Shown piece by piece: positions 263 to 27,673 of a DNA stretch of 33,580 bases. Position numbers and translations under genes: made by a program. Origin of the DNA: Candidatus Woesearchaeota archaeon (lineage in GTDB: Archaea > Nanobdellota > Nanobdellia > Pacearchaeales > GW2011-AR1); assembly GCA_964524525.1 (NCBI GenBank), contig CAZGCP010000001.1, positions 1 to 33,580 of the forward strand, written 5' to 3'. Every line of letters begins with the position of its first letter. Positions within the stretch are counted from its first letter, which is position 1. The notes beneath the pieces were generated by a model. It worked only from the letters and a program-made list of their open reading frames with translations. It made no database searches and was not told the DNA's origin.

Positions 263-892
263 TTAATTTTTATTAAAATTTCTTTTCTTTTTTATTATAA
301 AATAAACCAAAACAATTATTCCTAAAACAAGAATTAAAATTACTTTAAATAAATTCTCTATTGAAGTGAAAGGTGTTGGTCCTATTGAATACCCAATAAA
401 AATTAAGATTAAAGTCCATATTCCTGCTCCAAGAGAAGTATAAAAACAAAATCTTCCTAAGTGCATTCTTGAAAATCCTGCTGGAAGTGAAATTAATTGC
501 CTTACAACTGGAAAAAGCCTTCCAATAAAGGTGGTTATTTCTCCATTTTTTTCAAAATATCTGTCTGACTTCTTTAAACTTTCTTGTTTAATAAATAAAA
601 AATGCCCGTATTTTGAAACTAGCCTTTCAACACCCTTTCTACCAATAAAAAGTGCAATAGAATAGTTTATAAGAGCTCCTGTAAGGCTTCCTAAAACACT
701 TAAAAAGAAAACTAAAACAAGATCCATACTCCCTTTTTTAATTAATGAGCCTGCTGGAATTAAAATTGCCTCACTTGGAAAAGGAAAAAAAGAACTTTCA
801 ATAGTCATTCCAAAATAAATTCCAAAATAATGAAGATTTTCTATAATTAATAAAATACTCGAATAAATGCTTTGCAATAAATCAAAAACCAT
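263..892 (-). CDS. DedA-family membrane protein (SNARE-associated/VTT domain)
   Basis: 209 aa, polytopic. DedA-like core: ESSFFPFPSEAILIPAGSL...GSLTGALINYSIALFIGRKG...FIGRLFPVVRQLISLPAG. ATG at 890-892 lies 1 nt after the stop of the upstream gene. Confidence 0.75.
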   Translation of the reverse strand: MVFDLLQSIYSSILLIIENLHYFGIYFGMTIESSFFPFPSEAILIPAGSLIKKGSMDLVLVFFLSVLGSLTGALINYSIALFIGRKGVERLVSKYGHFLFIKQESLKKSDRYFEKNGEITTFIGRLFPVVRQLISLPAGFSRMHLGRFCFYTSLGAGIWTLILIFIGYSIGPTPFTSIENLFKVILILVLGIIVLVYFIIKKKRNFNKN

Positions 893-893
893 T

Positions 894-1427
894 TTACTTT
901 TTCTTTATTTGTTTTAAAAGAATTTTGAAATCAGTATAAAAAGGAATCCCTTTTATTTTAAATTTTTTAACTTCCAAAAACCAAATTCCTATTACAAAAA
1001 TTGTGCTTCCCAAATACCATAAAATTTTATGGATTAAAGCAAAAGAAGAAACATCATTCACATATAAAATTCCTAAAACAATTATTCTTGTAATATTTAA
1101 AACTAATAAGATTCCAAAAGAGAAAAGTAATGAATTAATTCTTTTTTTGCAAGAAAGATTTGGAACTGATAAATTCAAAATCAAAAGTAAAAAATAAGCA
1201 GAACCTGCTACACAAGGACCTACAATTTCCAAAGGTATTGAATCCAAAAAAATAGTTGTTCCATTTAAAGAAGTGTTATAAAAAATACTTAATATCCAAT
1301 AAACAGGATAAACAGTTAAAGGAGTAAAAATCCAATAAAAAATATACAATCCTGGAAGTGCAGAAAGAACTAAAATCAAATACCTTAATATAAAATTCTT
1401 AAAATAATTTTTTTTAAATTTTACCAT
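894..1427 (-). CDS. Compact exosortase/archaeosortase-family membrane protein (pacearchaeosortase-like), putative transpeptidase
   Basis: 177 aa with about 5 TM segments. Ordered signature: Cys (EIVGPCVAGSAY), Asn-x-x-Arg (LVLNITRIIVLG), His (ALIHKILWYLG), as in the exosortase/archaeosortase catalytic set. Sits directly downstream of two candidate substrates. Confidence 0.55.
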   Translation of the reverse strand: MVKFKKNYFKNFILRYLILVLSALPGLYIFYWIFTPLTVYPVYWILSIFYNTSLNGTTIFLDSIPLEIVGPCVAGSAYFLLLILNLSVPNLSCKKRINSLLFSFGILLVLNITRIIVLGILYVNDVSSFALIHKILWYLGSTIFVIGIWFLEVKKFKIKGIPFYTDFKILLKQIKKK

Positions 1428-1457
1428 AAAAAGTTTATGAGAACTGACTTTAAATAA

Positions 1458-1691
1458 TTATTTGAACTTTTTTTCTAAAGAATTATAAAATTTTTCTACT
1501 TTTTCTATTTCTGGAATAAATTTTTCTGGACAATATTCTTGATATTTCCTAGCATTTGAAATTAATTGAGGTATTTCTTTTTGATTTAAAGGTAAATCAC
1601 TTCTATTACTATCCAAATAATCATTAATCTGTGATAAAGACTTATAAATTTCTAAAAATTCTTTAGTCTCTTTATCTTTAAGGCAAATCAT
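1458..1691 (-). CDS. Small hypothetical cytoplasmic protein, translationally coupled to the upstream surface-protein gene
   Basis: 77 aa with no TM segment. Its ATG overlaps the upstream TGA (ATGA, 1688-1691). Confidence 0.45.
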   Translation of the reverse strand: MICLKDKETKEFLEIYKSLSQINDYLDSNRSDLPLNQKEIPQLISNARKYQEYCPEKFIPEIEKVEKFYNSLEKKFK

Positions 1692-3742
1692 TTTGAATTT
1701 TTATTGGAAGGTTCCTTTTCCTCTTTATTTTTTCCTTGATTTTTCTTTTTCAAAGATTTTTTCTTTTTACTTTTTTTAGTAGCAATAGAAATTATTTTTA
1801 CAATTATTAAGATTATTGCTATTATTAATAAAACATTAAGAATTGCTTCCCAATTCCAATCTTTGATTCCTTTAGATTTTTTAACTTCAATTGGAAGTTT
1901 AAATTCAGCAACTACTATTCCATCTTTTCCAATATTCCAATTAATAATTTGTTTTCCTGAAACATTTTCTTTTGATTGAAGAGTGATTTCAACATTTTCT
2001 GATTCTCCAACATCAAGAGTTATTTGTGAAGGGTTTATTGAAATTGATTCTGTCCAATTAGAATTAATATATCCTAACTCATATGTTACTGGTTCATCTT
2101 CGGGATTTGTTATTGTTACATTCAAAACAAACTCATCTCCTGATTTCCTACCTTTTTTAAGACTTGCATCAATCATGTTTGATTTTTTAACTTCATCATA
2201 GAAGTGTGCACACCATAATCCAGTAACATCAACATTTGAAGTATAAATTGCTTTTTCATCATCTACTCCTCCTTCATAAATATCTTTTTCTTCCATATCT
2301 TTATCATCATATACTGTAAATGTAATTGGGTATATTTTTTCTTCAACACCTTCAGGTATTCTTACTAATACATCAAAATTAGAACTTCCTAAGGGATTTA
2401 TTCCACTGTCAAATTCAACAACTTCACTAATTCCTAATTCCTCATTTTCTACTTTTACAAAAATCTCATCTTCTGGAATTTTATCATCTCCAATATTCCA
2501 AATTTTAGGTCTGAATTGTATTTCTGAATCACAAGGAACAAATACATCTAAATCTAAATTCTTTATAACTAAATATTCTTTTAATTTAACATTTAAATCT
2601 TTTAAGGCTGAAGTAGCAGTTTCTTCTCCATCAACATTTTCTTCTTCTGCCTTGTCTCCTTCTAACTCTCCTTTAGCAGAAATCAAAAAGGAATAATCAT
2701 CATTTGTTTCAGATAATTTTTTTGGATCTAATGTGAAAACAATTTCCAAATCCATATCTTTTCCTTTTTCTAAATCAAAATCATCTTCATTAATTTCCAT
2801 ATATCCCTCATCTAAAACACATTTATCATCTTTAATATCATATAAACATATTTCAATTTCAATATCTTCAACATCATAATTTCCTTTGTTGTCAAGTGAA
2901 GTTTCAATTTTTATTTTATCGAAAGGGTAGATTTTTGTTTCTTCTCCTAATCCTTCTTCTACTGAAAAAGTTAATTCGTCAAATACTAATTCACCAAGAT
3001 TTGAAATATCTCCTGCATATCCTTTATTATAAATAACCTCTCCTCCAGCATAATCTCCATTAGAAGAGTTTGCATTCACAATTATTGAATTTTCTCCATA
3101 TTTTAAATCATCAAAATCTGAATCAAGTTTCAAAGTAATTTCTTTTTCTTCTCCTGCAGTTAAATCAAAATCATTTTCAGAAAAATTAACATCAAATTCT
3201 CCTGAATAAGTTAAATTAATTTCAGTTAAACCTGTGTTTCCTTCATTCTTTACTGTGATTGATGTGGTTTTTCTAGTAAAAGTTGAATCTGATACTGATA
3301 AAGAAGATGATTCTGGAACACTTACATCTAAGTAAAAAACAGGATTATTATTTAAAGGTCTTAAATCGCTTTGGTTTGTAGGATTTCTTTCATAACCATC
3401 AAAAGTTATTTCTAAATTATATGAATCTGAAGGTTTATGTTTTGGAACACTTACTTCAAGGCTTATTACTCCAATAGTTCCGTTTTCTATTGAATTGAAA
3501 TTTTTTATTTCAACATTTTCCTCAGAAAAAGGGCCATCTAAAACATTTATTGAAGTAGAAAGATTATATAAATCCCAATTTGCATCTGCTTCAACTTCAA
3601 TATTTATAATTTCAGAAGTTCCGTGATTAATATTTTCCATAGCAGAACTAGATTTTAAAGTTATAGCTGCACTAACAAAACTCATAACTAAAAGTAATAA
3701 AAAAATACTTGCTATTCCTAATGTTAATTTTTTTGATATCAT
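1688..3742 (-). CDS. Secreted, C-terminally anchored surface protein, paralog A (S-layer/adhesin-like)
   Basis: 684 aa. Signal peptide MISKKLTLGIASIFLLLLVMSFVSAA. Acidic Asn/Asp/Glu-rich beta-type domains. C-terminus is SKGIKDWNWEA + TM (ILNVLLIIAIILIIVKIISIA) + Lys-rich tail. Collinear with 3801-5843. Confidence 0.85.
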   Translation of the reverse strand: MISKKLTLGIASIFLLLLVMSFVSAAITLKSSSAMENINHGTSEIINIEVEADANWDLYNLSTSINVLDGPFSEENVEIKNFNSIENGTIGVISLEVSVPKHKPSDSYNLEITFDGYERNPTNQSDLRPLNNNPVFYLDVSVPESSSLSVSDSTFTRKTTSITVKNEGNTGLTEINLTYSGEFDVNFSENDFDLTAGEEKEITLKLDSDFDDLKYGENSIIVNANSSNGDYAGGEVIYNKGYAGDISNLGELVFDELTFSVEEGLGEETKIYPFDKIKIETSLDNKGNYDVEDIEIEICLYDIKDDKCVLDEGYMEINEDDFDLEKGKDMDLEIVFTLDPKKLSETNDDYSFLISAKGELEGDKAEEENVDGEETATSALKDLNVKLKEYLVIKNLDLDVFVPCDSEIQFRPKIWNIGDDKIPEDEIFVKVENEELGISEVVEFDSGINPLGSSNFDVLVRIPEGVEEKIYPITFTVYDDKDMEEKDIYEGGVDDEKAIYTSNVDVTGLWCAHFYDEVKKSNMIDASLKKGRKSGDEFVLNVTITNPEDEPVTYELGYINSNWTESISINPSQITLDVGESENVEITLQSKENVSGKQIINWNIGKDGIVVAEFKLPIEVKKSKGIKDWNWEAILNVLLIIAIILIIVKIISIATKKSKKKKSLKKKNQGKNKEEKEPSNKNSK

Positions 3743-3786
3743 TTTGTTGTAATTGGGTAGTTACACAACTTTAAAAACCTTTTGGT
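3743..3786 (-). promoter_or_regulatory. Putative promoter/short 5' region of paralog A, duplicated upstream of paralog B
   Basis: Sense strand reads CCAAAAGGTTTTTAAAG, then 26 nt, then ATG. The TATA-like box lies about 27 nt from the ATG, implying a leaderless or very short leader. Near-identical to 5844-5888. Confidence 0.45.
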
Positions 3787-3800
3787 TTTTTTTTGTGATT

Positions 3801-5843
3801 TTATTTTTTTATTGCTTTTTTAATATTATTATCTTCTTTTTTTAATTTCTTTTTTTTCTTTCCTTGTTTATGTGATGAAACTATAATTCCTGTAACTACT
3901 CCTACAATTGCAATTCCTAAAACAATATTCATAATAATTTTCCAATTCCAACCTTCAAACCAATCTAAAATACCTTTAGATTCTCTAACAGTTACTGGAA
4001 GTTCATAACTTGCAACAGGAATTTTATTTTTACTAATAGTCCACTCTATGACTTGGTCTCCGTAAACATCTTTTTTAGATTCAATTATTAACTGAACAAT
4101 TACTGATTCTTCAGATTCAAGTGTTAATTCAGAAGAACCTAATGAAATTGACTCTGCCCAATCAACAGTAATATTGCTTAAATCATAAGTTACTTTTTTA
4201 TCTTCTGGATTTGTTATTGTTATGTTTATAATAAATTCATCTCCTGATTTTTCTCCAGATTCAAGATCTGCTTTAATCATTTCTAATTTTGTCTGATCAT
4301 TATAAACTGTTTTACACCATAATCCTGAAACATTTATTGTTGAAGTATATGCTGGATGGTAATCTCCCATATCTTGGTAAATATCATCTAAAAAACTTTT
4401 TTCATATTCTTCATAAGGTGTAAAAACAATATCATATTCTCCTTCTTCAATTCCTTTAGGTATTTCAATTAAAACATCAAAACTTGAACTTTCCAAAGAA
4501 TCTAAATCTTCTTTAAATTCAACAATCTTACTAATATTTAAATCCTTATTATAAACTTCAATAAAAATCCCTTCATTTTTCTCTTCATCTCTTTCTATAT
4601 CCTCTTCCATTAAATTCCAGATTTTTGCATTATATTGTATTTCTGAATTACAAGAAATAGATTCCTCAATTTCTAAATTTTCAATATAAACACTTCCTTC
4701 TTTAATTTCAAAATCTAAACTAGCTGAAATACCTGTTTTGTTACCTGCAAATTCTTCCCTATCTCCTTCTTCTAAAGTTCCTTCTGCTTTTATCCATAAA
4801 GTATAATCTCCTTCAAATTCATTTTCTTCTAAAAAATCTTCACTAAGTTTAAAAATTAATTCTAAATCAATTTCATCGCTATCTTCATCTAAATCAAAAT
4901 CATTTTCATTGATTTCCATTTCATCTAAAGTTGCTATTTCATCTCCTAATTCATCAAAAATAGATGCCTCTATTTCAATATCTTCTATTTCATAATCATC
5001 TTTATCTTCAAGAGCTAATGTAAATTCTGTTCTTACTTTATCTAAAGGATAAAACTCTGCATCTTTGGCATCCCCATATCCTTCTACATATTTAAAATCA
5101 AAATCTTCTATTTCTAAATTATCATTTCTTTGTTCTTCTGTGAAATCTCTAAAAAGATTCAATGTTCCTGTGTTATGAGTTCCAGAAGAATTAGCTGTTA
5201 TAGTTATATCATTATCTCCATATTTTAAATCGCTAACATCTGAAGTAAACATTACTGTAACTTCCTTACTTTCTCCAGGAATTAAACTAAAATCATTTTC
5301 AGAAAAATTAATCCAGTTCTTTGAAGAATTAAGATTTATTGAAGTTAGATCTAAATTTCCTTGATTTTTTATTGTTATATTTTTTTTGTTTTCTCTTATT
5401 ACATCAAATTCTGGAGAAGAAACTGAAATATCTTTTGAATCTTTAATAGTTACTGAAAAAGGTAATGAAGTTGTAGTAGATTCTCTTTCTCCTCTAACTC
5501 CAATATTTCCTTTTATAACTCCTGTTTGATATTTATTAAAGGAAACTGTAGCTTGATAATCCTCTGTTATTTCTGTTCCTGAACCATTGCCTATTGTATT
5601 TTTATTAAAACTTATTTGTAATCCTTCTTGTGAAGAAGTAAAATCTGAATAACTCCAATTTAAATCCCCCTCAACTCCCCCATTTGTTAAATTAAATTTT
5701 ATTTTAAAATTTTCATCATGAGAAACTTCTTCAGGAGAATTAATTAAATTAATATCCTCTAAATCAACAGCACTAACAAAACTCATAACTAAAAGTAATA
5801 AAAAAATACTTGCTAATCCAAGAGTCATTATTTTTGATCTCAT
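3801..5843 (-). CDS. Secreted, C-terminally anchored surface protein, paralog B (S-layer/adhesin-like)
   Basis: 680 aa. Signal peptide MRSKIMTLGLASIFLLLLVMSFVSAV. C-terminus is SKGILDWFEGWNWK + TM (IIMNIVLGIAIVGVVTGIIV) + KKKKKLKK tail. Shares blocks with paralog A (NFSENDF, DLKYG.N.I...ANSS, GLWC, GDEF..N.TITNPED). Confidence 0.85.
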   Translation of the reverse strand: MRSKIMTLGLASIFLLLLVMSFVSAVDLEDINLINSPEEVSHDENFKIKFNLTNGGVEGDLNWSYSDFTSSQEGLQISFNKNTIGNGSGTEITEDYQATVSFNKYQTGVIKGNIGVRGERESTTTSLPFSVTIKDSKDISVSSPEFDVIRENKKNITIKNQGNLDLTSINLNSSKNWINFSENDFSLIPGESKEVTVMFTSDVSDLKYGDNDITITANSSGTHNTGTLNLFRDFTEEQRNDNLEIEDFDFKYVEGYGDAKDAEFYPLDKVRTEFTLALEDKDDYEIEDIEIEASIFDELGDEIATLDEMEINENDFDLDEDSDEIDLELIFKLSEDFLEENEFEGDYTLWIKAEGTLEEGDREEFAGNKTGISASLDFEIKEGSVYIENLEIEESISCNSEIQYNAKIWNLMEEDIERDEEKNEGIFIEVYNKDLNISKIVEFKEDLDSLESSSFDVLIEIPKGIEEGEYDIVFTPYEEYEKSFLDDIYQDMGDYHPAYTSTINVSGLWCKTVYNDQTKLEMIKADLESGEKSGDEFIINITITNPEDKKVTYDLSNITVDWAESISLGSSELTLESEESVIVQLIIESKKDVYGDQVIEWTISKNKIPVASYELPVTVRESKGILDWFEGWNWKIIMNIVLGIAIVGVVTGIIVSSHKQGKKKKKLKKEDNNIKKAIKK

Positions 5844-5888
5844 TTTTGTTGTAATTCTGTAGTTACATAAGTTTAAAAACCTTTTGGT
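5844..5888 (-). promoter_or_regulatory. Putative promoter/short 5' region of paralog B (copy of 3743-3786)
   Basis: Sense strand reads CCAAAAGGTTTTTAAAC, then about 27 nt, then ATG. Aligns with the paralog A upstream region with few mismatches. Confidence 0.45.
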
Positions 5889-5907
5889 AATTTATAGAGA
5901 ATAAAGC

Positions 5908-8900
5908 TTAATCGTTTTTAATTATTTTTCCAGTTTTATTATAACCTTTTTCAGTATTAATCTTATAAATGTAAGTTCCACTTGGTCCAGTTATATTAAA
6001 TCTCTTAGTTCCTTTAACATCATTCTCAATTAATCCTTTTTCCAAAGAATTTCCATTTAAATTATAAATATTAATTGAACCATCTTGAGGTTTTTCAAAA
6101 TTATATTTAATATTAAAATCTCCATCAGTTGGATTAGGATATGCTTTAACAGAATAATCTTCAAAAGAGGATTTGTCTATTGATTCATATGTTGTATCAC
6201 TATAAACTGTTTTAGATATAGAGGTGTCATTACCTGCTTTATCTCTAGCATAAATTTCTATAGAGTTCTCTCCTTGTTGATAACCTGCTCCTGTTGTATC
6301 TACTAAATTGTTAATTCCCCAAGATTTTCCATTTACTGTATACCAAGCTGTGTCTAAGTTCTCTTCAATTATTTCCCAAGCCAAATCATTGTCATTCACT
6401 GTCTCTCCTTGAGGTTTATTTATTGAAATTGTTGGTTTTGTATTATCATAAATCCAGTTTCTTGTAATAGAAGAATCATTTCCTGCTTTATCTGTAAAAT
6501 AGTATTCTATTGTATTTGTATCTCCCACCATTCCTTCTAAAGTATCTCCATTACTTTGTTCCCAATCAATTTTATTTCCATTTAATTTTATATATGAATT
6601 AAATGGGTCTATTCTTGAAACTGCATCTGAAACATTGAAATCATTTATAGGATGTGTAGAATAAACTCCTTCTTTATCTGGATGATTTACTTTGAGAGAA
6701 GGTGCAGTATTATCATAAATAAAGTTAATTGTTCTATTTGAATGATTTCCTGCAATGTCTTTTGCATAAATTTGTACTTGGTGTTCTCCTTCAATTTTTG
6801 GAACTTGAATTGTATCTAAATGAGATTTTTTTGGGGGGAAAACTTCATTAACTCCTACATTTATATTTTGTTTTGAATAATCATCTAATTTATACCATAA
6901 AGTATCTAAAAAATTGCTATTATTTGAGCTTGTATCTGAAACTGTAAAAATAAAATCTTCAAGAGTATTTTTATTATAAGAGGAATTATTTTGAAGATTG
7001 AAATTTATTTCAGGATTTTGATTATCTTTATTTGGATTTCCAGTAACAAATCGATTAGAACTTGCAGAATAGGATAAATTAGGATTTCCTACACTATCTA
7101 TATTCCATTCAAGAAAAGTCATGTCTATAAAATTCCCTGTTCCTTCATTATAACCATAATTATATTTTACTTCAATTTTTGAATTACTTAAAGAGTTAGT
7201 ATTTATTTCTGAATCATTTGTTGGATTGAAAAAGAACCAATTATTTGCATCTAGAGGATTATCTTCTGTTAAAATCCCATTAAACCATTCATCACTTGTA
7301 GTATTGTGAACACTATAAATAGGAAGGTTAAATCTTCTTAATGTTTCTAAAGATTCTGGATTTTGTGAAAGAGTTGAACTATATTCTTCTTGAGTTATAT
7401 CTGAAAGGTTTCTTATTCCTTTTGAATTTATTTCTACTTGTCTTGCATAATTTTTGCTGTTCCATACTTCACCAGGAGTAGAATTTTCAGGAATTGAATC
7501 TGATTTATCAATTGAAGCTATGTTTCTAACCCAACTTTGTTTTTCATCATTGGTTAGACTAGTCCAAAATCTTCCTGGAAGATAAGATTTATTTCCTTCA
7601 TCAATATATTTTAAAATCATAGCCTTGTCTATAGGAGTAATAACTCCATCGCCATCAACATCTGCTCTATCATGTGCTCTTGAGATTTCTCCTTCTAATC
7701 TTGGTTGCCCATCTAAATTTATTGCATATTTTGGATTAGGAACATTTTGGCCTAATAAATTATTTATAGAATCTACATCTGCTCGGGTTACTTCTCCATC
7801 ATTATTCAAATCACCATTACCATAACTTGAACTAACATGAGTCTCAGATTGTTTAAATGGATTAATTAACCAGTGTTTATCAAAACCATTAGAAGAATTA
7901 CGATATACAAAATTTTTCTGTGTAGTAACTGTGTTTCCAGCTGAATCTGTGAAAAAGTATTCAATTGTGTTGGTTCCTTCAAGAAGATTCTCTAAAGTAT
8001 CTCCATTGCTTTGTTTCCAATCAATTTTGTTTCCATTTAATTTTATACAAGAGTTTATTGAATCTAAGTAAGTATCTGAAATATTGAATTGATTAATCGG
8101 TCTTTCTAAATATAAACTATCATTTTTTGGAGAACCTACCTTTAAAGAAGGGTAAATTGTATCATAAACAAAACTCTTTGTTATGGAAGTATCATTTCTA
8201 GCTATATCAGAAAAATAATATTCTATTTCATTTCTTCCTTGTCTAGGGTTTAAAACATTTCCTTGAATTGAATCCCAATTATGAATTGTATCATTGTTGA
8301 ATCTTATGAAAGAATTTGTTGAATCTGTTCCAGAAATTGGATCAAATACATTAAAATTATTAAGAGGCCTATAAGAATAATGCATTCCATCTTGTACTGA
8401 ATCTACATTAAAAAAAGGAGCTGTTGTATCATAAACAAAATTTCTTGACATTGAAGAGTTATTTCCTGCTGAATCTGTAAAGAAATATTCCATTTCATTT
8501 AGCCCTTCTATGGGATTCAATATGTCTCCATTACTGTTTTTCCAATCCAAAGTATCTGAATTAAATCTTATGAAAGAATTTGTTGAATCCAAGTAAGTAT
8601 CTGAAACACTGAATTGATTAGTTGGCTTTTCAGAATAGATTGTGTCGTTAACTGGAGTAAGTGAATTTAAATTTGGAGAGATAGTGTCATAAACAAAATT
8701 TCTTGATATTGAAGAGTTATTTCCTGCTGAATCTGTAAAAAAGTATTCTATTGTGTTCCTTACATCTCCAATAGGATTTAGTGTTGCTCCATTGCTATTT
8801 TCCCAACCGCTTGTGTCAATATCAGAACCATTTAATCTTATGAAAGAATTTGTTGAATCCAAGTAAGTATCTGAAATAGTGAATTGATTAGTAGGTTTAT

Positions 8901-9630
8901 ATGAATAATACATCCCATTTTCAGGAGTGGTTACACCTAAATTTGGTTTTGTTGTATCATAAACAAAATTATTTGTTACAGAAGTTTCGTTTCCCAAAGT
9001 ATCAGTAAAATAATAATCCATTTCATTTTTTCCTTCTATTGGATTCAATGTGTCTCCGTTGCTGTTTTCCCAACCAATTGTGTTAACATCAGAAATATTT
9101 AATCTTATGAAAGAATTTGTTGAATCTATTACAGAAACTGCATCTGATATACTGAAATTATTAATTGGTTTTGTTGAATAGTGATTTTTGTTTTGAGGAC
9201 TTCCTATTGTTAATTCAGGAGAAATATTATCAAAATTAAAATTAATTGTTGTATCTTTTACATTTGAAGAATCATCAACAAAATAATATTGTAAAGCATT
9301 CAATCCTTGTTGAGGGTTTAAAGTTTCTCCATTTATAGAATCCCAATTATAAGTTGTATCATTGTTGAATCTTATGAAAGAATTAGAAGTATCTATTTCT
9401 GAAGAATCATCTGAAACAGTAAATTGATTAATTGGCTTTTCAGTATAAACCGAATCATTTACTGGAGAAGTTATTTCTATTTGTGGAGGTATGGTATCTT
9501 GAGCACTTAATTCTTTTGGAGTAGCTAATAAACTAAGTCCTGCAAAAGCTAAAGGTAGAACTGCATTTTTCTTAATTCCCTCCCCTAATCTCTTAAATAA
9601 GCTTACCATTTTTTTCTTCCCTGTTATCAT
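5908..9630 (-). CDS. Giant secreted repeat protein: about 9 Ig-like repeats, a dockerin-like Ca-binding pair, a unique central region and a T9SS-type C-terminal sorting-like domain
   Basis: 1240 aa. Signal-like N-terminus ...AVLPLAFAGLSLLATPKELSAQD. ~86-90 aa repeats (DT..P.L....P.N...YS.KP.NQF..SD...DSTNSFIRLN...W.NSNGD.LNP.EG.N..EYFFTDSAGN.SS..RNFVY). GDLNNDGEVTRADVDSINNLL and DVDGDGVITPIDKAMILKYI. C-terminus YPNPTDGDFNI...INIYNLNGNSL...GTYIYKI...KTGKIIKND. Confidence 0.85.
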   Translation of the reverse strand: MITGKKKMVSLFKRLGEGIKKNAVLPLAFAGLSLLATPKELSAQDTIPPQIEITSPVNDSVYTEKPINQFTVSDDSSEIDTSNSFIRFNNDTTYNWDSINGETLNPQQGLNALQYYFVDDSSNVKDTTINFNFDNISPELTIGSPQNKNHYSTKPINNFSISDAVSVIDSTNSFIRLNISDVNTIGWENSNGDTLNPIEGKNEMDYYFTDTLGNETSVTNNFVYDTTKPNLGVTTPENGMYYSYKPTNQFTISDTYLDSTNSFIRLNGSDIDTSGWENSNGATLNPIGDVRNTIEYFFTDSAGNNSSISRNFVYDTISPNLNSLTPVNDTIYSEKPTNQFSVSDTYLDSTNSFIRFNSDTLDWKNSNGDILNPIEGLNEMEYFFTDSAGNNSSMSRNFVYDTTAPFFNVDSVQDGMHYSYRPLNNFNVFDPISGTDSTNSFIRFNNDTIHNWDSIQGNVLNPRQGRNEIEYYFSDIARNDTSITKSFVYDTIYPSLKVGSPKNDSLYLERPINQFNISDTYLDSINSCIKLNGNKIDWKQSNGDTLENLLEGTNTIEYFFTDSAGNTVTTQKNFVYRNSSNGFDKHWLINPFKQSETHVSSSYGNGDLNNDGEVTRADVDSINNLLGQNVPNPKYAINLDGQPRLEGEISRAHDRADVDGDGVITPIDKAMILKYIDEGNKSYLPGRFWTSLTNDEKQSWVRNIASIDKSDSIPENSTPGEVWNSKNYARQVEINSKGIRNLSDITQEEYSSTLSQNPESLETLRRFNLPIYSVHNTTSDEWFNGILTEDNPLDANNWFFFNPTNDSEINTNSLSNSKIEVKYNYGYNEGTGNFIDMTFLEWNIDSVGNPNLSYSASSNRFVTGNPNKDNQNPEINFNLQNNSSYNKNTLEDFIFTVSDTSSNNSNFLDTLWYKLDDYSKQNINVGVNEVFPPKKSHLDTIQVPKIEGEHQVQIYAKDIAGNHSNRTINFIYDNTAPSLKVNHPDKEGVYSTHPINDFNVSDAVSRIDPFNSYIKLNGNKIDWEQSNGDTLEGMVGDTNTIEYYFTDKAGNDSSITRNWIYDNTKPTISINKPQGETVNDNDLAWEIIEENLDTAWYTVNGKSWGINNLVDTTGAGYQQGENSIEIYARDKAGNDTSISKTVYSDTTYESIDKSSFEDYSVKAYPNPTDGDFNIKYNFEKPQDGSINIYNLNGNSLEKGLIENDVKGTKRFNITGPSGTYIYKINTEKGYNKTGKIIKND

Positions 9631-24928: not shown

Positions 24929-26866
24929 ATGGAATGGAATTTATACAAAAAAGGAGAATTTCTTGAACCATTAAAATTTTCAAACGGAAAGACACAGAAA
25001 GATGTTGTTGAAGAAATTTTGAAAGAAATTGAAAAAGGTGAAAGAGTAATTTTTATCCATGGAAAATGTGGCACTGGAAAAAGTGCTATTGCTTTAAATC
25101 TTGCTAAAGAAATAGGAAAAACATCTATTGTGGTTCCTGGAAAAAATTTACAACAACAATACAAAAAAGACTATGAAGATGAAAAATACATTTTAAAAGA
25201 AAACAAAGAAAAATTAAAAATTTCAGTTATAACAGGAAGAAAAAACCATAAATGTAAATTTCTCGAAGATAATAAAGAATTTTTTTCAAATTCAAAACAA
25301 GAAAAAAACACAAGTTTGCTTGATGTTTTTTCAAAAAAGAGAAATTCAATTAAAAAAGAAATTTCAGAGGATTCTTCTGCAGATAATAATAAACTTCCTT
25401 GTAAAATAGAAATAAAAGAAAAAAACATTGGCAAGATAAGGGAATATTTAAAACAAAATAAAAAAGTCAATATAAAAAATTTTGAAAAAATTTCTGATAT
25501 TAAAAGAATGTCTATTGCACCTGTTTGTCCTTATTGGTCCCCTGTTTTTCCAGAAGAATATGAAATAAATCTTGAAGCAGAAAAGAAAAAATATTATGGG
25601 CTAAATAATATCATTTATAATTATTATAAAAGAAAATCTGGATGCGAATTTTATGAGCAATTCCAATCATATATAAGCTCTGATGTTATTGTTTTTAATT
25701 CTCTAAAATATCAATTAGAATCTTTAATGAATAGAAAACCTTCTACAGAAATAGAAATAATAGATGAGTGTGATGAATTTTTAGATAGTTTCTCTAATAT
25801 AAAAAAAATAAATCTTGATAGGTTCTTGAATTCTTTAAATCCCCTTTATCTGGAAGATATTAATATTGAAAAAGTTAAAGAAATGCAAGAGATTTTAATT
25901 CATTTGAAAAAAGATAAAAAAGTAAAAGAATCCATAGAAAATTCAAAAATATTAAGATTAAAAGAAACCGGGATTTATGACTTGTTTAAAATCCTTCTTG
26001 AAGATGAAAAATTATTAAAAAATGTTGATGAAGAAAGCTATATTTTTGAAATTGAAAATATTGCTAAAATGTTCAAAGAATTTTTTAGTGAAACATTTAT
26101 AATTTTTGAAGAAAAAAATGAAAGCCTTATTGCAAATATTGTCACAATAAATCTTTCTAAAAAATTTTCTAATTTGTTAAACAAAAATAAAATTCTTATT
26201 CTGATGTCAGGCACATTACATTCTAGAGAAGTATTAAAAGAAATGTTTGGGATTGAAAATTTTAAAATAATAGAAGCAGAAACAAAACATCAAGGAATTA
26301 TAAAAATAAAAAGATTAGGAAATGAAAAAAATTGCAAATATTCAAATTTTTTTAATGGTACAATAAATAGAGAAGAGTATCTAAAAAATTTGGATAATTG
26401 TGTTGAGTCGGGTAAAAAACCTTGTTTAGTTCATATTAATGGATTTAATGATTTGCCTTCTGATTATGAAATAGAAAAACTAAATTTAAAGAATCTTATT
26501 GATAAAAGAAAATTAAAAGAACTTCAATTTGAAGATAAAACAGGGGAAAGAGTAAATGAATTCAAATCAGGAGAATTTGATGTTCTTTTTACAACAAGAG
26601 ATTCTCGAGGAATAGATTTTCCTGGGGAAGAATGCAATAGTGTTGTTTTTACAAAATATCCTAATCCTGATGTAAAAGATCCATTTTGGAAGATTCTTAA
26701 CAAAACAAAACCATTACAATATTGGAAATTTTATAAAGACAAAGCAAAGAGAGAAGTTTATCAAAAAATTTATAGAGGATTAAGATCAGAAAAAGACTAT
26801 GTTGAAATATTAAGTCCTGATTCAAGAGTGTTGGAAGCTTTTGAAGAAATGGAAAAAAATAATTAA
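24929..26866 (+). CDS. Superfamily-2 helicase, XPD/Rad3 (DinG)-like, with a Cys-containing insert
   Basis: 645 aa. Walker A HGKCGTGKSAIA, DExD-like IIDECDEF, C-terminal FTTRDSRGIDFPGEECNSVVFTKYPNP. Cys at NHKCKF, LPCKIE, APVCPYW and SGCEFY between motifs I and II, where XPD binds its 4Fe-4S cluster. Confidence 0.6.
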   Translation: MEWNLYKKGEFLEPLKFSNGKTQKDVVEEILKEIEKGERVIFIHGKCGTGKSAIALNLAKEIGKTSIVVPGKNLQQQYKKDYEDEKYILKENKEKLKISVITGRKNHKCKFLEDNKEFFSNSKQEKNTSLLDVFSKKRNSIKKEISEDSSADNNKLPCKIEIKEKNIGKIREYLKQNKKVNIKNFEKISDIKRMSIAPVCPYWSPVFPEEYEINLEAEKKKYYGLNNIIYNYYKRKSGCEFYEQFQSYISSDVIVFNSLKYQLESLMNRKPSTEIEIIDECDEFLDSFSNIKKINLDRFLNSLNPLYLEDINIEKVKEMQEILIHLKKDKKVKESIENSKILRLKETGIYDLFKILLEDEKLLKNVDEESYIFEIENIAKMFKEFFSETFIIFEEKNESLIANIVTINLSKKFSNLLNKNKILILMSGTLHSREVLKEMFGIENFKIIEAETKHQGIIKIKRLGNEKNCKYSNFFNGTINREEYLKNLDNCVESGKKPCLVHINGFNDLPSDYEIEKLNLKNLIDKRKLKELQFEDKTGERVNEFKSGEFDVLFTTRDSRGIDFPGEECNSVVFTKYPNPDVKDPFWKILNKTKPLQYWKFYKDKAKREVYQKIYRGLRSEKDYVEILSPDSRVLEAFEEMEKNN

Positions 26867-27612
26867 ATACCTTCGAGTCCTGAATAAAATTTCTCAGTTC
26901 CTTCTTCTATTTTTTTTAAATTTTTTTTATTAAAAAAAACTTCTTTCAAAAATAAATAAACAATTAATGAAATAAATATAATTGTTAATATAATCAAAAT
27001 AGGGAAAAATACTGTATTAGTTTCCAAAAGTTTTACTCCTAAATAAGATTGTATGAAAATTAAAGGAGCAATTCCTAAACCTGTTGCTAATAAAAATTTC
27101 TTTAAAGAGATATTTGTTAAACCATATAAATAACTAAAAATATCTGTAGAAGTTATTGGATTTACTCTTAATAGAAATAAGGAAAAAGCCCCATGTTTAT
27201 GAGAAAATTTATCAAATTTTTTTAATTTATTTTTACTTACATTTTTTTCAACATAAGACCTTCCATACTTTTTAACTAATTTAAAAACAATATATGCTCC
27301 AATCAAGTTACCTATTAAAACCAATATTCCTCCTAAAAAAGGCCCAAAAACAAGTCCTCCTGCAACATATAAAACTAAAGGGATTAATGGAGCTATAATT
27401 ACTTCTAAAACAACCAATAATATAAATATAAAACCTGCAAAAAAACCTAATGAACTTAAAAATTCCTGAATATCTGAAGGAGAGAGATGAAATAAATTAT
27501 GTATTAAACCTTCATTATAAAAAGAATAAAACATCCATGAACAAACAAAAAGTAAAATTATGATCAAAGGTAAAAATTTTCTTAATTTTTTATGGTTCTC
27601 TTTTTTATTCAT
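26863..27612 (-). CDS. TVP38/TMEM64-family (DedA-superfamily) membrane protein
   Basis: LEVIIAPLIPLVLYVAGGLVFGPFLGGILVLIGNLIGAYIVFKLVKKYGR...RVNPITSTDIFSYLYGLT. The track start at 27615 is TTG; the ATG is at 27612. Confidence 0.75.
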   Translation of the reverse strand: MNKKENHKKLRKFLPLIIILLFVCSWMFYSFYNEGLIHNLFHLSPSDIQEFLSSLGFFAGFIFILLVVLEVIIAPLIPLVLYVAGGLVFGPFLGGILVLIGNLIGAYIVFKLVKKYGRSYVEKNVSKNKLKKFDKFSHKHGAFSLFLLRVNPITSTDIFSYLYGLTNISLKKFLLATGLGIAPLIFIQSYLGVKLLETNTVFFPILIILTIIFISLIVYLFLKEVFFNKKNLKKIEEGTEKFYSGLEGI

Positions 27613-27673
27613 CAATAAAAAAACAAAATTAAATTATATAAATGTTGTCAAAATTTCCTTTATTAATTATCAA

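Follow-up and report, generated by a model that had tools for sequence, protein, structure and literature searches.

A pacearchaeosortase/PACE-CTERM locus of a DPANN archaeon with a recurrent but optional DedA gene behind the sortase

The 33,580-bp contig CAZGCP010000001.1 of a Candidatus Woesearchaeota archaeon was analysed over its entire length (the window; G+C content about 27%) and carries, at positions 263-5843, a cluster of five genes that includes a membrane-embedded sortase and two of its predicted substrates. Probably, this cluster is a standard pacearchaeosortase/PACE-CTERM system of the DPANN archaea with a sortase-DedA bicistron, in which the DedA-family protein would act as a dispensable lipid helper. 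A previous sequence-only reading of the same DNA had placed five genes on one strand, and their coordinates and junctions were all confirmed on the minus strand: paralogs B and A of a surface protein, a 77-residue open reading frame (ORF), the sortase and DedA. An ATGA overlap at 1688-1691 joins paralog A to the 77-residue ORF, which is followed by a gap of 30 nucleotides (nt) before the sortase and of 1 nt between the sortase and DedA. The features, with lengths in amino acids (aa) and transmembrane abbreviated as TM, are as follows.

263-892, minus strand: DedA/VTT-family membrane protein, 209 aa, beginning 1 nt past the sortase stop codon; candidate lipid transporter on the sortase transcript
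894-1427, minus strand: pacearchaeosortase, 177 aa, an exosortase/archaeosortase-family membrane Cys transpeptidase by family match
975-1229, minus strand: catalytic core of the sortase, residues 67-151 (TIGR04178 region), with the invariant C72, R96, N111, R114 and H133
1449-1454, minus strand: TATA box TTTAAA of the sortase promoter, exactly 27 nt before the ATG and inside the 30-nt gap
1458-1691, minus strand: soluble orphan ORF of 77 aa, in ATGA overlap with paralog A
1688-3742, minus strand: paralog A, PACE-CTERM surface protein with signal peptide, 684 aa, predicted pacearchaeosortase substrate
1691-1873, minus strand: C-terminal sorting signal of paralog A, with KGIKDWNW motif, TM helix and long Lys-rich tail
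3770-3775, minus strand: TATA-like hexamer TTTAAA of the paralog A promoter (duplicated copy), 33 nt upstream of the ATG
3801-5843, minus strand: paralog B, PACE-CTERM surface protein with signal peptide, 680 aa, predicted pacearchaeosortase substrate
3804-3977, minus strand: C-terminal sorting signal of paralog B, with KGILDWFEGWNW motif, TM helix and Lys-rich tail
5872-5877, minus strand: TATA-like hexamer TTTAAA of the paralog B promoter, 34 nt upstream of the ATG

The 177-aa protein matched the NCBIfam model NF033505 (pacearchaeosortase) with 215.8 bits (cutoff 80) and an E-value of 3.9e-64 over model positions 3-167 of 167. It also matched TIGR04178, the signature common to exosortases and archaeosortases, with 30.4 bits (cutoff 23) at residues 67-151. 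Paralog A reached 250.6 bits (cutoff 110, E-value 3.4e-74) with the substrate model NF033506, named 'PACE-CTERM-PROT, putative S-layer protein', and paralog B 236.4 bits over its full length (E-value 6.8e-70). With E-values of 3.9e-64, 3.4e-74 and 6.8e-70 for the three proteins, the assignment of sortase and substrates is therefore not a matter of chance. The central proposal of the sequence-only reading, an exosortase/archaeosortase-family enzyme encoded next to its own substrates, was thus borne out by a hidden Markov model search in which the pacearchaeosortase model, named in advance by that reading, gave a full-length match well above its cutoff. The signature, the conserved Cys and Arg and the helical membrane architecture together place the protein in the superfamily. 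A large protein database held 484 homologs of the sortase, several of them named 'pacearchaeosortase' by NCBI. Given the curated models and this automatic naming, a dedicated sortase with its own substrates was therefore already known and is not new here; the terms 'pacearchaeosortase' and 'PACE-CTERM' are not mentioned in the literature that was searched.

The other named subfamilies scored below their cutoffs: ArtE 29.0 bits (cutoff 95), XrtM 24.7 (125), ArtD 20.6 (125), XrtH 12.9 (86) and XrtX 12.8 (170). No match to an ArtA model appeared in NCBIfam at E-values up to 1. ArtD, ArtE, XrtM and XrtH resemble the window enzyme in size, their models spanning 150-158 positions, and share a weak but real similarity with it; the scores, however, lie far below the respective cutoffs of 86-125 bits, so the enzyme is a member of none of these subfamilies. 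The small size that the sequence-only reading had singled out as a minimal sortase is no special feature, since models of such length show that compact sortases are a kind already described.

The motifs PCVAGS, NITR and IHK are all present in the sortase, with C72 encoded at 1212-1214, N111 at 1095-1097, R114 at 1086-1088 and H133 at 1029-1031. Cys72, Arg96, Asn111, Arg114 and His133 were invariant in 41 homologs with 50-86% identity, as anticipated for residues of functional weight in the earlier proposal of a Cys/Arg/His triad. An AlphaFold2 model (predicted local distance difference test 90.9, predicted template modelling score 0.83) consisted of five long helices and a further helix at the C-terminus, together with a short beta hairpin region, which fits the estimate of about five TM helices. 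In ArtA the residues found critical by experiment are Cys173, Arg214 and Arg253 (PMC9263693). Cys and Arg are therefore a well-founded pair. The His of the proposed triad is invariant here, but no His is among these three ArtA residues; His133 may have a catalytic role.

The distribution of the system was followed in a scan with one genome per GTDB species. A sortase relative was encoded in 447 genomes, and the best 80 loci were analysed; they form the basis of the locus counts below and are designated by L numbers where a single one is meant. A homolog of the substrate was found by clustering in 77 of the 80 loci, in agreement with the expected co-occurrence of the sortase with an adjoining substrate, and phmmer located it immediately upstream in the same orientation in at least 72. 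In the three remaining loci the contigs extend no more than 175-441 nt upstream. The window thus shares with the pacearchaeosortase/PACE-CTERM system described by NF033505 and NF033506 the matching enzyme and substrates, the invariant Cys/Arg core and the position of the enzyme gene directly downstream of the substrate, as in nearly all 80 loci.

Paralogs A and B are 39% identical across their full length, and a signal peptide, a KGI..DWNW motif, a TM helix and a Lys-rich tail could be read directly from each. Across the family, 81 tails defined a C-terminal signal consisting of QPVxVxIE, a short linker and (G/D)NWYLWGIGxLN leading into the TM helix, followed by R/K-K. The window differs from it in having KGI..DWNW in place of NWYLWGIGxLN and a basic tail of about 30-35 residues in place of 2-3, and the same divergent motif and unusually long Lys-rich tail occur in the paralogs of its two closest relatives. 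These three genomes (the window, L001 and L081) form a clade that differs from the other loci analysed by a tandem duplication of the substrate gene together with its promoter. The regions upstream of A and B (3743-3800 and 5844-5907) are near-identical, with the common arrangement CCAAAAGGTTTTTAAA..TGTAACTAC..AATTACAACAAA-ATG, and the duplication therefore copied the promoter and the short leader as well as the gene.

A separate promoter precedes the sortase. In 59 of the 80 related loci the hexamer TTTAAA stood at precisely -27 relative to the sortase ATG, and in 68 it lay between -22 and -29; for comparison, TTTAAA occurs between -18 and -32 at 32.5% of called gene starts and at 4.4% of random positions. 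A TATA box at such a distance is the geometry expected for a leaderless archaeal mRNA. The conserved box at -27 means that the sortase is not simply the distal part of a substrate operon, and we therefore attribute the sortase and DedA genes to a separate and probably leaderless transcript. The four genes that the sequence-only reading had regarded as one packed unit accordingly have to be divided, each substrate paralog having its own copy of a promoter and the sortase having its own TATA box. For DedA no promoter element was conserved: among the 29 loci that carry the gene behind the sortase, TTTAAA preceded it in five, at scattered positions, and was absent in L001. The junction between sortase and DedA measured -4, 0 or +1 nt in 21 of the 29 loci. 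Given these tight junctions and the lack of a conserved promoter, DedA is best read as the second cistron.

The DedA protein matched the Pfam family PF09335 (VTT_dom) with 83.6 bits (threshold 33.9) over the full domain (1-123). Its best NCBIfam match was UptA, with 120.6 bits for NF052604 (cutoff 250) and 96.8 bits for NF052605 (cutoff 300). The gene adjoins the sortase in 29 of the 80 loci, or in 28 of the 74 with enough downstream sequence. Approached from the other side, seven of eight DedA orthologs that were picked by their similarity to DedA (54-63% identity) lay directly behind a pacearchaeosortase; for the ortholog in L090, the 4 kb upstream contain no sortase. The sortase-DedA pair is intact in L085 and L086, where the substrate gene is no longer adjacent. 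The DedA-positive loci fall into several separate groups on a neighbour-joining tree of the sortase, and a single acquisition of DedA was not adopted; a tree of a 180-aa protein resolves too little for gains and losses to be counted. From gene order, the coupling of DedA to the sortase thus appears real, recurrent and optional. It also appears unpublished, in line with the earlier suggestion that it lies outside the described archaeosortase systems: in the literature searched, no paper ties DedA or PAP2 to archaeosortases or exosortases, and DedA is named beside them in incidental co-mentions only.

The slot behind the sortase is variable, being occupied by DedA in 29 loci, by an opposite-strand PF06695 protein in 25 and by neither in 26. 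The PF06695 product ('putative small multidrug export') is a membrane protein encoded between the sortase and the conserved neighbour C3, for example at 1678-2157 of L063, and no locus among the 80 has both it and DedA. The window contains a second VTT/DedA gene (26863-27615, minus strand, 250 aa), the product of which is 29% identical over 111 aa to the sortase-linked DedA. Against UptA this second paralog scored 29.7 bits, compared with 120.6 for the sortase-linked protein.

On the other side of the sortase, 35 loci (among them L002, L006, L007, L012 and L020) carry a divergently transcribed PAP2 phosphatase gene (Pfam 65.3 bits). In 24 of 34 loci, a spacer of precisely 48 nt separates the start codons of the two genes, with a palindromic TTTAAA in the centre (21/6/21 nt). 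The fixed spacer with its centred hexamer suggests that one TATA box serves both directions, and both transcripts would then probably be leaderless. The best curated matches of the PAP2 protein were the undecaprenyl-diphosphatases SepP and PRK11837, with 36.9 and 29.4 bits, both below the cutoffs. DedA and PAP2 flank the sortase together in 16 related loci. No PAP2 gene was found in the window contig, and an orphan 77-aa ORF stands between substrate and enzyme; in these two points, too, the window departs from the pacearchaeosortase/PACE-CTERM system as described.

Taken together, these data suggest the following course of events. Two tandem paralogs of a single dedicated substrate, a Sec-exported surface protein with immunoglobulin-like domains, would each be expressed from their own copy of the promoter. 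After export they would remain tethered by the C-terminal NW-rich motif, the TM helix and the basic tail. The sortase would cleave at this signal, using Cys72 together with Arg114 and the other invariant residues, and, by analogy with ArtA, would transfer the new C-terminus to a membrane lipid. Its transcript would start from the TATA box at -27, probably leaderless, and carry DedA along as a bicistron. DedA, joined in many relatives by the divergent PAP2, most likely handles the lipid side of surface-protein maturation, be it the delivery of an acceptor to the outer leaflet or the recycling of a lipid of the (poly)prenyl-phosphate type. An accessory role of the two proteins in lipid handling is thus suggested by their families and positions, and DedA is taken as a dispensable helper, since it is missing from the majority of sortase loci. 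As to the 77-aa ORF, it would be a gene of recent origin, confined to its lineage and carried along on the transcript of paralog A.

The closest experimentally studied system is ArtA/PGF-CTERM of Haloferax volcanii. It belongs to the same superfamily (TIGR04178) and is likewise paired with a tripartite signal of motif, TM segment and basic residues on a major surface protein. It differs in the size of the enzyme (about 300 aa from a 912-bp gene, compared with 177 aa), in its many substrates, compared with essentially one substrate family, and in the PGF motif, which is NW-rich in the window. The genomic linkage of a sortase to lipid-related genes is common to both, artA being syntenic with pssA and pssD in Methanosarcina, a precedent for such linkage (PMC7157517). 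The linked genes themselves are of different kinds, a DedA transporter and a PAP2 phosphatase here and the synthesis enzymes PssA and PssD for ArtA. Processing by Haloferax ArtA requires PssA and PssD, and archaetidylethanolamine was proposed as the nucleophile (PMC7157517). A second precedent is the bacterial recycling pair of a BcrC/PgpB-type PAP2 phosphatase and the DedA-family protein UptA. The same two families flank the sortase in 16 loci, but the archaeal DedA and PAP2 proteins score well short of the equivalog cutoffs, the hosts, being archaea, have isoprenoid ether lipids and carriers of the dolichol type, and the window carries only the DedA half of this putative pair.

Several observations weigh against the interpretation of the locus as a sortase system with a lipid helper. 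DedA is missing next to the sortase in 51 of the 80 loci and PAP2 in 45, so that the enzyme can do without either as a neighbour, and both proteins stay far under the curated cutoffs in their matches to polyprenyl-phosphate proteins. Synteny is strong throughout the region: the gene clusters C3 and C4 were found in 67-72 loci, and the arrangement of SepF, prefoldin, a gene of diphthamide synthesis and several uncharacterised membrane proteins is maintained in 40-72. Gene order passed down in compact genomes, rather than functional coupling, could therefore account for much of the co-occurrence. A search for solved structural relatives of the sortase with a PDB sequence profile and Foldseek returned none (best Foldseek E-value 4.4). 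The attachment of a lipid by pacearchaeosortase is extrapolated from Haloferax ArtA, the only member of the superfamily for which cleavage and transpeptidation are known (PMC7157517, PMC9263693). Finally, a TTTAAA stands 26 nt before the DedA ATG in the window and could be an internal promoter; we treated it as a chance occurrence in view of the scattered positions of the hexamer in the other loci and its absence in L001.

The role of the lipid-handling genes can be read in three other ways. DedA and PAP2 might serve glycosylation and not the sortase reaction, the sortase merely sharing a cluster for envelope biogenesis. PAP2 would dephosphorylate dolichyl or polyprenyl diphosphate outside the cell and DedA would flip the monophosphate back, as BcrC and UptA do, and the recycled lipid would keep up the N-glycosylation of the surface protein, an abundant product of the neighbouring gene. 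This is possible, though on balance we doubt it. It agrees with the best curated match of the sortase-linked DedA being UptA at 120.6 bits when the second paralog reaches only 29.7, with SepP and PRK11837 as the best matches of PAP2, and with the experimentally established polyprenyl-phosphate (C55-P) flippases of the DedA family (PMC11474028, PMC12893004); a second surface protein with an S_layer_C domain is also encoded in the neighbourhood. The scores nevertheless remain far below curated cutoffs of 250. The 9 and 12 N-x-S/T sequons in the two substrates are in keeping with N-glycosylation, but their density of 1.3-1.8 per 100 aa is only modestly above that of cytoplasmic proteins and not decisive, and no oligosaccharyltransferase or glycosyltransferase was seen in the window. 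The physical coupling, moreover, is to the sortase, through the shared TATA box and the bicistron, and was kept where the substrate had moved (L085 and L086). In the version that goes back to the sequence-only reading, DedA would supply the lipid acceptor of the transpeptidation. It might, for example, flip an archaeal lipid of the ethanolamine type to the outer leaflet, where the amine of this lipid would resolve the sortase thioester intermediate. The requirement of ArtA for PssA and PssD, the proposed archaetidylethanolamine nucleophile and the synteny in Methanosarcina (PMC7157517) speak for such a supply, as does the DedA member PetA, which is required for the transbilayer distribution of phosphatidylethanolamine (PMC10193950), and the sortase-DedA junction is tight and the pair survives rearrangement. 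We consider it unlikely: it leaves the equally frequent, promoter-sharing PAP2 phosphatase unexplained, 64% of the sortase loci have no DedA, and among the curated models UptA comes closest to this protein, with no NCBIfam match named for PetA or phosphatidylethanolamine transport.

Alternatively, there may be no functional link at all, the adjacency of DedA and PAP2 reflecting inherited gene order in small, compact and syntenic DPANN genomes. FtsZ and L11 keep their relative positions across the 80 loci as do SepF, prefoldin and diphthamide synthesis, the slot behind the sortase is variable, and tiny intergenic distances are usual in such genomes. Inherited order accounts less well for a sortase-DedA pair that outlasts a rearrangement which removed the substrate gene, for the seven of eight orthologs that are sortase-linked when sought from the DedA side, and for the PAP2-sortase spacer, which in 24 of 34 loci is fixed at 48 nt around a shared, centred TATA box, an arrangement that implies co-regulation. 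The two additional genes, furthermore, encode lipid-handling membrane proteins, as would be expected beside a lipid-anchoring enzyme, and we regard the absence of any link as somewhat unlikely. We retain the assignment to a pacearchaeosortase/PACE-CTERM system, with DedA as a putative and dispensable helper in lipid handling.

The 77-aa ORF has a different standing. Its sole homolog is in the sister genome L001, of the same length and 60% identical without gaps, and the ratio of non-synonymous to synonymous substitution rates (dN/dS) between the two was 0.30, similar to that of the substrates. The ungapped homolog and the dN/dS indicate a coding-like sequence and hence a real gene. Jackhmmer over all ORFs of the 80 loci found it absent from the other 79 GTDB loci, and L081, with a sortase 84% identical to that of the window, passes from paralog A over a 37-nt gap straight to the sortase. 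No further homolog was detected among 5.8e9 proteins or by an exhaustive HMMER scan of 1.84e9 representatives, and NCBIfam and Pfam gave no family match. No separate TATA box serves the ORF, the start of which is coupled to the stop of paralog A. Judged by its sequence and distribution, it is a lineage-specific orphan on the substrate transcript, outside the conserved system.

The sequence-only reading had proposed this ORF as an accessory factor of sorting and its linkage as a feature to look for in related genomes. Neither idea survived the comparison, and a dedicated chaperone or regulator of the sorting system is very improbable. The ATGA overlap with the paralog A stop codon, the position between substrate and enzyme and the purifying selection between the two genomes would be compatible with such a factor, and about 23 other loci have some small same-strand ORF that starts right behind the substrate gene. 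These ORFs, however, did not cluster with the 77-aa ORF and among themselves formed only two small pairs, and 21 loci have a substrate-to-sortase gap of at most 103 nt with no ORF in it; a gene found in two genomes and missing from a relative as close as L081 is hardly a dedicated part of the system. A hidden divergent family was looked for with jackhmmer, all-against-all clustering of small ORFs and the database scans, and each returned the L001 copy only. The roughly 23 small ORFs encode 56-151 aa and begin within 80 nt of the substrate stop, as at 2195-2440 of L043, 5310-5612 of L059 and 7015-7320 of L071. Lineage-specific small genes thus seem to have a hot spot just behind the surface-protein gene. 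A cluster of nine small plus-strand ORFs was discarded as genes because their coordinates lie inside the minus-strand PAP2 gene and they are hence antisense.

The remaining genes of the contig are archaeal housekeeping genes, encoding the ribosomal proteins L11, L1, P0, P1, L3 and L4, Spt5, FtsZ, SepF, prefoldin, aIF5A and proteins of diphthamide and wyosine synthesis. Related contigs are labelled Pacearchaeota, Woesearchaeota or Nanoarchaeota. From this content and these labels, the host is therefore a DPANN archaeon. Four contigs with the full archaeal sortase synteny (L011, L046, L048 and L060) were deposited under bacterial names, namely uncultured Vicingus sp., Patescibacteria group bacterium, 'bacterium' and Candidatus Collierbacteria, and are probably mis-binned DPANN sequences.

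The left end of the window falls within a homolog of the conserved neighbour C3 (2-256, plus strand), an uncharacterised TM-anchored protein of about 230 aa that is present in 72 of the 80 loci and convergent with DedA. As the contig ends inside this gene, the window is cut just before the conserved genes C4 and C5. In 55 related loci C5, which lies past the left end of the window contig, encodes a conserved protein that has about 800 aa, a signal peptide and the Pfam domain S_layer_C, on the opposite strand a few genes downstream of the sortase (for example L084 6649-8624 and L089 6028-8535). It is a second and perhaps better candidate for the S-layer protein of the neighbourhood. The PACE-CTERM protein could then, speculatively and by analogy with SlaB and SlaA, be the membrane-anchoring partner of the S-layer.

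On the other side of the substrates, the window encodes at 5908-9630 (minus strand) a repeat-rich surface protein of 1240 aa with a dockerin domain and, at its C-terminus, a sorting domain of the T9SS type A, the latter supported by TIGR04183 (41.1 bits, cutoff 23) and the Pfam family Por_Secre_tail (31.4 bits, cutoff 27). Such a bacterial sorting domain is odd in an archaeon without an outer membrane. Only the window, L001 and L081 have the gene for this protein, as an insertion that separates the substrates from the conserved C6 gene.

In summary, the sortase-substrate core proposed for this DNA is correct and already curated, and what is mildly new is the architecture of the DedA operon and the PAP2 promoter, a modest lead. 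In dozens of DPANN genomes, a TATA box at a fixed position serves the sortase, and genes for lipid-handling membrane proteins recur beside it, DedA downstream and PAP2 divergent. The uncultivated status of the organisms, which are thought to scavenge lipids from their hosts, limits direct testing. For the question of how exosortase-family enzymes obtain their lipid acceptor, the gene-neighbourhood clue artA-pssA-pssD is the sole precedent. In a bolder reading, which we consider quite unlikely, PAP2, sortase and DedA would be a co-regulated three-protein module around one TATA box, in which the surface protein is attached or matured via a lipid of the polyprenyl-(pyro)phosphate type, and not an ethanolamine lipid, that PAP2 and DedA regenerate and flip again. 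If true, such a module would be the first genomic clue to the acceptor or carrier lipid of an exosortase-family enzyme. The association of DedA and PAP2 with pacearchaeosortase is thus not a discovery but a modest, testable lead for the biology of the archaeal envelope.

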